A DNA stretch of 64,000 bases from Escherichia coli. Its GTDB lineage: Bacteria; Pseudomonadota; Gammaproteobacteria; Enterobacterales; Enterobacteriaceae. Positions 27,782-28,162 of this stretch are shown here, one piece after another (the first letter of the stretch is position 1; each line of letters opens with the position of its first letter). The position numbers and the translations under genes were made by a program. Location of the stretch: NCBI RefSeq assembly GCF_044647545.1, contig NZ_CP172818.1; one strand, given 5' to 3'. A model generated the notes under the pieces. That model made no database searches, was not told the origin of the DNA, and worked only from the letters and a program-made list of their open reading frames with translations.

Positions 27782-28162
27782 TCAAAGGCTCCAGGTATTT
27801 AACCCTTTTACCTCTTTCTCATAAAACCATTTGTTCGTGTTAACAGCAACATAGGCTGCTACGGCAATTCCCAGAATGTTAACGCCAATTAGTGCACCAA
27901 CAAATAGAGATAGAATGCCAAGTAATAGAACTATAATTGCTTTTTTCCATAATCCCAGAACAAATAAATAGATCCAGGAACAGAAGAAAGCAATGAAATT
28001 CATTTGAATAGTTAATCGTTATCTTACTTTTAATGTTTTAAATGCTGCTTTATATTCTGGTGTTGCCCCCCAGAATCCAGGAAAGCCATGTTGATCATAA
28101 AAGTTAAATCGGTATTTCCATTTTTCACTTAATGAACCATCGTTCATATATTCCTTACTCAT
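27782..28162 (-). pseudogene. yigF: DUF2628 small membrane protein interrupted by an in-frame TAA
   Basis: two same-frame ORFs (28019..28204 and 27782..28003); from Met at 28162 the frame spans exactly 126 codons, matching the recalled YigF length, but codon 48 is TAA (28019..28021 on + strand tta). Confidence 0.55.

Follow-up and report, generated by a model that had tools for sequence, protein, structure and literature searches.

A premature ochre codon in yigF, very probably an inherited nonsense allele within Escherichia coli ST648

Introduction

The gene yigF of Escherichia coli K-12 encodes a 126-aa uncharacterised inner-membrane protein with a DUF2628 domain. In the 64-kb stretch of E. 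coli DNA analysed here, referred to as the window, a gene of the same position and length is interrupted by an in-frame TAA codon. This interruption raises the question of whether the codon is (i) a genuine nonsense mutation, (ii) an error of the record, (iii) the boundary between two functional pieces, or (iv) a stop that the ribosome passes over. If the mutation is genuine, it must further be asked in which lineage it arose and whether the loss of the gene product is of consequence.

The interrupted reading frame

The yigF frame runs along the minus strand of the window from 28162 to 27782 and comprises 381 nt, i.e., 126 codons and a stop, with the start ATG at 28162 and the terminal stop at 27784..27782. 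Minus-strand translation of 28204..27782 reads ...MSKEYMNDG...TLKVR*RLTIQMNFIAFF...NTWSL*. It bears out the preliminary description, which had placed the ORFs 28019..28204 and 27782..28003 in the same frame, counted exactly 126 codons from Met 28162 to the stop at 27782 (the length of K-12 YigF, whose CDS is also 381 nt), and read codon 48 as TAA (plus strand tta, 28019..28021). The two entries in the ORF listing are the two halves of one yigF frame. The mutated base is 28021, a C to T change on the gene strand and G to A on the plus strand. Downstream of the TAA, extra stops or frameshifts are seen neither in the window nor in the carriers that were checked. The features of the frame are as follows.

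27782..28162, minus strand: yigF reading frame, a DUF2628 inner-membrane protein gene and a pseudogene here, identified by its K-12 match, PF10947, and PGAP
28019..28021, minus strand: premature ochre stop TAA at yigF codon 48 (plus strand reads tta)
28022..28162, minus strand: 47-codon N-terminal fragment (MSKEYMNDG...TLKVR), predicted to be soluble and without a Pfam match on its own
27782..28003, minus strand: 73-codon C-terminal ORF from Met54, encoding the hydrophobic membrane portion and the larger share of the DUF2628 core

The yigF CDS of a K-12 derivative is intact at 381 nt. Alignment of the window to this reference, a check that the preliminary description had proposed, yields 10 nucleotide differences over 381 nt, of which 8 are synonymous and two change the protein (A43T and Q48*), and 124 of the 126 residues are identical. 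Thus, K-12 carries Ala43 and CAA (Gln) at codon 48, while the window carries Thr43 and TAA. Because the match to K-12 extends to both sides of the TAA, the two ORFs belong to one gene and are not chance in-frame ORFs. Orthology is evident both from the near-identical full-length sequence of 126 codons and from position, since in the gene tables yigF follows rarD and yigG on their shared strand and converges with corA. A reference that carries the same TAA or is annotated differently is ruled out by the CAA and the 126-aa CDS of K-12.

Occurrence of the allele in independent genomes

Across the 911-bp rarD-corA interval (27740-28650), the window shows no difference from either of two complete, independently sequenced ST648 genomes, FDAARGOS_497 and strain ST648, and its sole difference from FDAARGOS_1285 is base 28021. 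The yigF gene of FDAARGOS_1285 is intact and encodes WP_000032587.1, an allele also found in AR_0013 and EM10-18-28 that has the haplotype of the window and yields the full 126-aa protein. The closest relatives therefore hold an intact orthologue that differs at the stop, and this intact allele is the ancestral state of the yigF allele in the window. With CAA in K-12 and a near-identical relative one base away, the earlier proposal of a nonsense mutation that leaves a 47-aa N-terminal fragment is well founded.

The allele is reproducible in independent sequencing. With a 55-mer query that has the mutated base at its centre, such that each 28-nt megablast seed spans that base, the T allele (TAA) is recovered from 49 of 5426 complete E. 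coli genomes, always at 100% identity. On this haplotype, the C allele has exact matches in 121 of the complete genomes and matches with nearby variants in 669. The 47-aa and 73-aa fragments have been deposited as separate proteins, each on at least 1000 public contigs; those of strain MS6198 are AOM72344.1 (47 aa) and AOM72343.1 (73 aa, named “Inner membrane protein”). In the three genomes checked, PGAP labels the TAA-bearing yigF as “pseudo, internal stop” under the full product name “DUF2628 domain-containing protein, pseudo, internal stop”. Two PGAP pseudogenes, FH07_RS28135 (NZ_CP008697.1) and EGY17_RS09315 (NZ_CP033850.1), have a yigG-yigF interval identical to that of the window, TAA48 included. 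The nonsense allele of yigF is thus already known and flagged as a pseudogene in public annotation.

These counts decide whether the TAA could be a sequencing or assembly artefact of this record in a strain that really carries CAA. Such an artefact would fit a window that contains corrupted stretches and a chimeric corA 3′ end unmatched in complete genomes, but the T base recurs in 49 independently sequenced complete genomes, both fragment proteins are each found on at least 1000 public contigs, and the 6 kb around yigF (27740-33728) are 100% identical to strain ST648. The genomes and contigs rule out the sequencing error that the preliminary description had offered as its alternative, and an artefact of any kind at this base is scarcely credible. 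Since corrupted patches lie elsewhere in the window, the record is not trustworthy base by base. Proof of the mutation rests on the independent genomes, the window record being insufficient by itself.

Lineage and recurrence

Five carriers of the TAA are documented as members of ST648, phylogroup F, namely MS6198 and strain ST648 (PMC8281228), Ecol_881 (PMC9174282), and ECONIH1 and MS14385 (PMC8454413). Strain EM10-18-28 is likewise typed as ST648 (PMC8350485), and its yigF gene is intact. The mutation therefore arose inside ST648 and marks a sublineage; fixation of the TAA throughout ST648 is ruled out by the same strain. Conservation of the stop in related strains, which the preliminary description had wished to see examined, accordingly holds for the 49 carriers, with the five documented ST648 strains among them, and fails for EM10-18-28 and FDAARGOS_1285. 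The backbone of the window is itself ST648-like, with 27740-33728 and 33783-37000 both matching strain ST648 at 100% identity. The 64 kb contain no recognised copy of any of the seven MLST genes.

A search with the K-12-type sequence carrying the C to T change retrieves CAA→TAA on a K-12-type haplotype from one genome, that of the surface-water isolate OW1E2 (NZ_CP067245.1), in which yigF lies at 1387-1767 of the locus and is annotated “internal stop”. The OW1E2 stop is one independent recurrence of Gln48→TAA, and the idea that the mutation is unique is thereby ruled out.

Recurrence of the identical change on another haplotype is what would be expected if YigF loss were advantageous to ST648 and not neutral, and yigF has indeed been named a virulence factor, although this label derives from the PATRIC database without experiment (PMC11747333). 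Nevertheless, only one recurrence is found among ~2,470 yigF-bearing genomes, and CAA→TAA is one of only a few single-step changes that create a stop. The carriers other than OW1E2, documented ST648 strains included, have one local haplotype, which is consistent with a single origin and clonal spread, and YigF has no assigned function. Adaptive inactivation is consequently regarded as unlikely.

Consequences for the protein

When the stop is repaired, YigF matches PF10947 (DUF2628) over residues 17-117 with 40.7 bits, above the gathering threshold of 23 bits. On its own, the 73-aa fragment still reaches 28 bits over profile positions 23-91, and the 47-aa fragment has no Pfam match. The stop at codon 48 falls inside the DUF2628 domain and ahead of every hydrophobic segment. 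On this basis, translation is expected to end after 47 residues, full-length YigF would not be made, and yigF most likely suffers a loss of function.

Any product of the distal part would depend on a restart. Met54 (28003) is the only in-frame ATG, GTG, or TTG past the TAA and begins 15 nt after it, a spacing within the few to tens of nucleotides expected for termination-reinitiation. In the 25 nt upstream of Met54, the best duplex with the anti-Shine-Dalgarno sequence reaches -1.4 kcal/mol, compared to -5.9 kcal/mol at the yigF start and -6.1 kcal/mol at the yigG start. The native signal of yigF is listed below.

28168..28171, minus strand: GGAG Shine-Dalgarno of the native yigF start (anti-Shine-Dalgarno duplex of -5.9 kcal/mol within the 25 nt that precede ATG 28162)

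Independent initiation at Met54 thus appears unlikely, and, because a Shine-Dalgarno sequence is lacking there, the 73-aa fragment would be made weakly at best, by termination-reinitiation.

These properties bear on the possibility of a functional split gene, in which reinitiation at Met54 would give a 73-aa membrane protein that keeps the activity of YigF, possibly together with the 47-aa fragment. Met54 is well placed for such a role as the sole in-frame start and one that lies near the stop, the 73-aa fragment retains the hydrophobic part and a DUF2628 score above the cut-off (28 versus 23 bits), and the downstream ORF is undisrupted in the carriers checked. However, the duplex of -1.4 kcal/mol provides no Shine-Dalgarno at Met54, and residues 17-53, i.e., the first third of the region matched by DUF2628, are lost. 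The clone is young, its closest intact allele lying 1 nt away, which accounts for the undecayed state of the downstream ORF, and more than half of the E. coli genomes do without yigF. A functional split gene is therefore considered very improbable.

Full-length YigF could also be restored by read-through or suppression of the stop codon. The base that follows the stop is C, and termination at TAAC is comparatively weak in E. coli. On the other hand, TAA terminates more efficiently in E. coli than the other stop codons, and selenocysteine is inapplicable because the codon is not UGA. Programmed recoding would call for a UGA with a downstream SECIS element or for a known read-through context, and the codon here is TAA. 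Restoration of the full-length protein by this route carries a negligible probability.

The yigG-yigF islet and its neighbours

A 601-nt locus query finds the islet in 2471 of 5426 complete E. coli genomes (~45%), always at yigG / yigF / corA. The islet has a GC content of 31-35%, compared to ~52% in its flanks, and counts among the MG1655 “promoter islands” listed in PMC3661553. Two further features frame yigF in the window.

28176..28556, minus strand: yigG (126 codons), intact and upstream of yigF (NF008474 equivalog, 251.9 bits)
27751..27775, strand not assigned: GC-rich hairpin with an 11-bp stem between the convergent yigF and corA, terminator-like on both strands

The yigG gene of the window is identical to that of FDAARGOS_497 (WP_021521448.1). 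The hairpin is a likely bidirectional terminator. Since no gene follows yigF on its strand, the premature stop has no polar effect downstream.

The rarD-corA site (window 27,740-28,650) is variable in gene content, holding either yigG-yigF (K-12 type) or a YPO3983-family gene with a DUF943 gene (e.g., strain GF131). Genomes of the ST648 type hold the two together, and between them lies a duplicated 147-bp piece of the corA 3′ end with the Asp variant described below. In the PGAP-annotated ST648 genomes, the 1.56-kb YPO3983/DUF943 cassette and the 147-bp corA remnant adjoin yigF, whereas in the window a single corA adjoins it.

A naming peculiarity also surrounds this gene pair. The 90%-identity cluster that contains YigF also holds sequences named YigG (e.g., YIGG_ECOLI), whereas the profile matches of the two proteins differ, with YigF matching DUF2628 and YigG weakly matching DUF805. 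The YigG names in the YigF cluster are probably an artefact of database clustering or naming.

Most probable explanation and significance

Little is on record about the protein itself. YigF has no matches to PADLOC defence-system models, no solved relatives in the PDB (best E-value 0.65), and no model in NCBIfam. The literature holds no experiments on yigF, which figures in the promoter-island listing (PMC3661553) and under the database-derived “virulence factor” label (PMC11747333), and DUF2628 is seldom mentioned.

The explanation that we hold with high confidence is an inherited CAA→TAA transition in yigF that occurred inside ST648, abolished the full-length product, and spread neutrally with the clone. 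The transition (Gln48→ochre) arose within E. coli ST648 (phylogroup F), in the second gene of the islet, and the allele is carried by the main sequenced ST648 sublineage, to which the backbone of the window belongs. Translation would halt within DUF2628 after 47 residues, short of the membrane-spanning part. The 73-codon ORF, which has no ribosome-binding site, would give only a low-level product via termination-reinitiation. No other gene is affected, as yigF is the last gene before the terminator that it shares with the convergent corA, and the loss of function would be neutral and would have spread by hitch-hiking with clonal expansion. Because yigF is uncharacterised and absent in more than half of E. 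coli, neutral loss is the most economical reading. Taken together, the two departures from it, namely a yigF that works as two pieces (a soluble peptide of 47 aa plus a membrane protein of 73 aa translated through Shine-Dalgarno-independent reinitiation) or a loss of YigF that selection favoured while the main ST648 sublineage was emerging, receive only a small share of our confidence.

Lineage-specific pseudogenes are a general phenomenon in clonal pathogenic E. coli lineages. The yigF gene of the window resembles these pseudogenes in that a single-base change inactivates a non-essential accessory gene in a recently expanded clone. It differs in that yigF has no known tie to host adaptation or virulence. 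The stop in yigF is ordinary and matters little. As a single-base marker, the allele can tell the main sequenced ST648 sublineage apart from EM10-18-28-like ST648 and close relatives, and it adds one more datum for the dispensability of the DUF2628 protein YigF. In practice, gene callers without a pseudogene model deposit two spurious proteins (47 and 73 aa) at yigF.

Quality of the window sequence

No complete E. coli genome reaches at least 99% identity to the window over 22000-34000 or 37001-62000. The shortfall is due to missing islands and corrupted patches and not to real divergence. The degraded patches and the corA mosaic look like assembly or base-calling artefacts that leave yigF untouched, and other “mutations” read from this window need checking against independent genomes.

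The first patch, at 24,716-25,655 (worst at ~24,980-25,650), affects a SAM hydrolase/halogenase-family gene between uvrD and yigE, which is degraded, C-rich, and smeared by C/T/A homopolymers. Compared to strain ST648, it has 229 differences and 41 gaps between flanks that are 100% identical, and among 5,426 complete E. coli genomes the best match reaches 86.7% identity. The patch has the appearance of a base-calling or assembly artefact and not of a biological change. A second patch that also looks artefactual lies at 42,429-43,747, in the 2-dehydro-3-deoxygalactonokinase / IclR-regulator region upstream of rmuC; here, 224 of the 292 differences from strain ST648 are a deleted G, a nearly systematic error. 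K-12 presumably lacks the DNA that corresponds to this second patch. In addition, ~137 nt of low-complexity sequence at 10,961-11,098, with a poly-A run of ~55 nt, replace ~570 bp between aslA and hemY, a segment that in strain ST648 carries the hypothetical gene FH07_RS00300.

Compared to the ST648 genomes examined, four segments are missing from the window, with junctions at ~27,739, 33,732/33,783, 40,551/40,604, and 42,424-42,435. These are (i) the 1.56-kb YPO3983/DUF943 cassette beside corA, (ii) an Rpn-family gene between rhtC and rhtB, (iii) an 8.5-kb island between metE and ysgA, and (iv) ~4 kb between udp and rmuC. All four are, we assume, absent from K-12 as well. Their absence from the window suggests a reference-guided or otherwise incomplete assembly.

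The 3′ end of corA (27,575-27,745) contains a Tyr276→Asp change at codon 27,614-27,616, within the conserved YGMNF motif, which is essential for transport by CorA. Six nucleotides (GATGGC) agree with the 147-bp corA remnant found in ST648 genomes, while the flanking SNPs match the full-length ST648 corA, and identity to these 171 bp does not exceed 97.1% in any complete E. coli genome. From this mosaic pattern, the corA 3′ end would be either an assembly chimera of a collapsed repeat or a real recombination product; if it is a real recombinant, the Tyr276→Asp change would probably cripple CorA.
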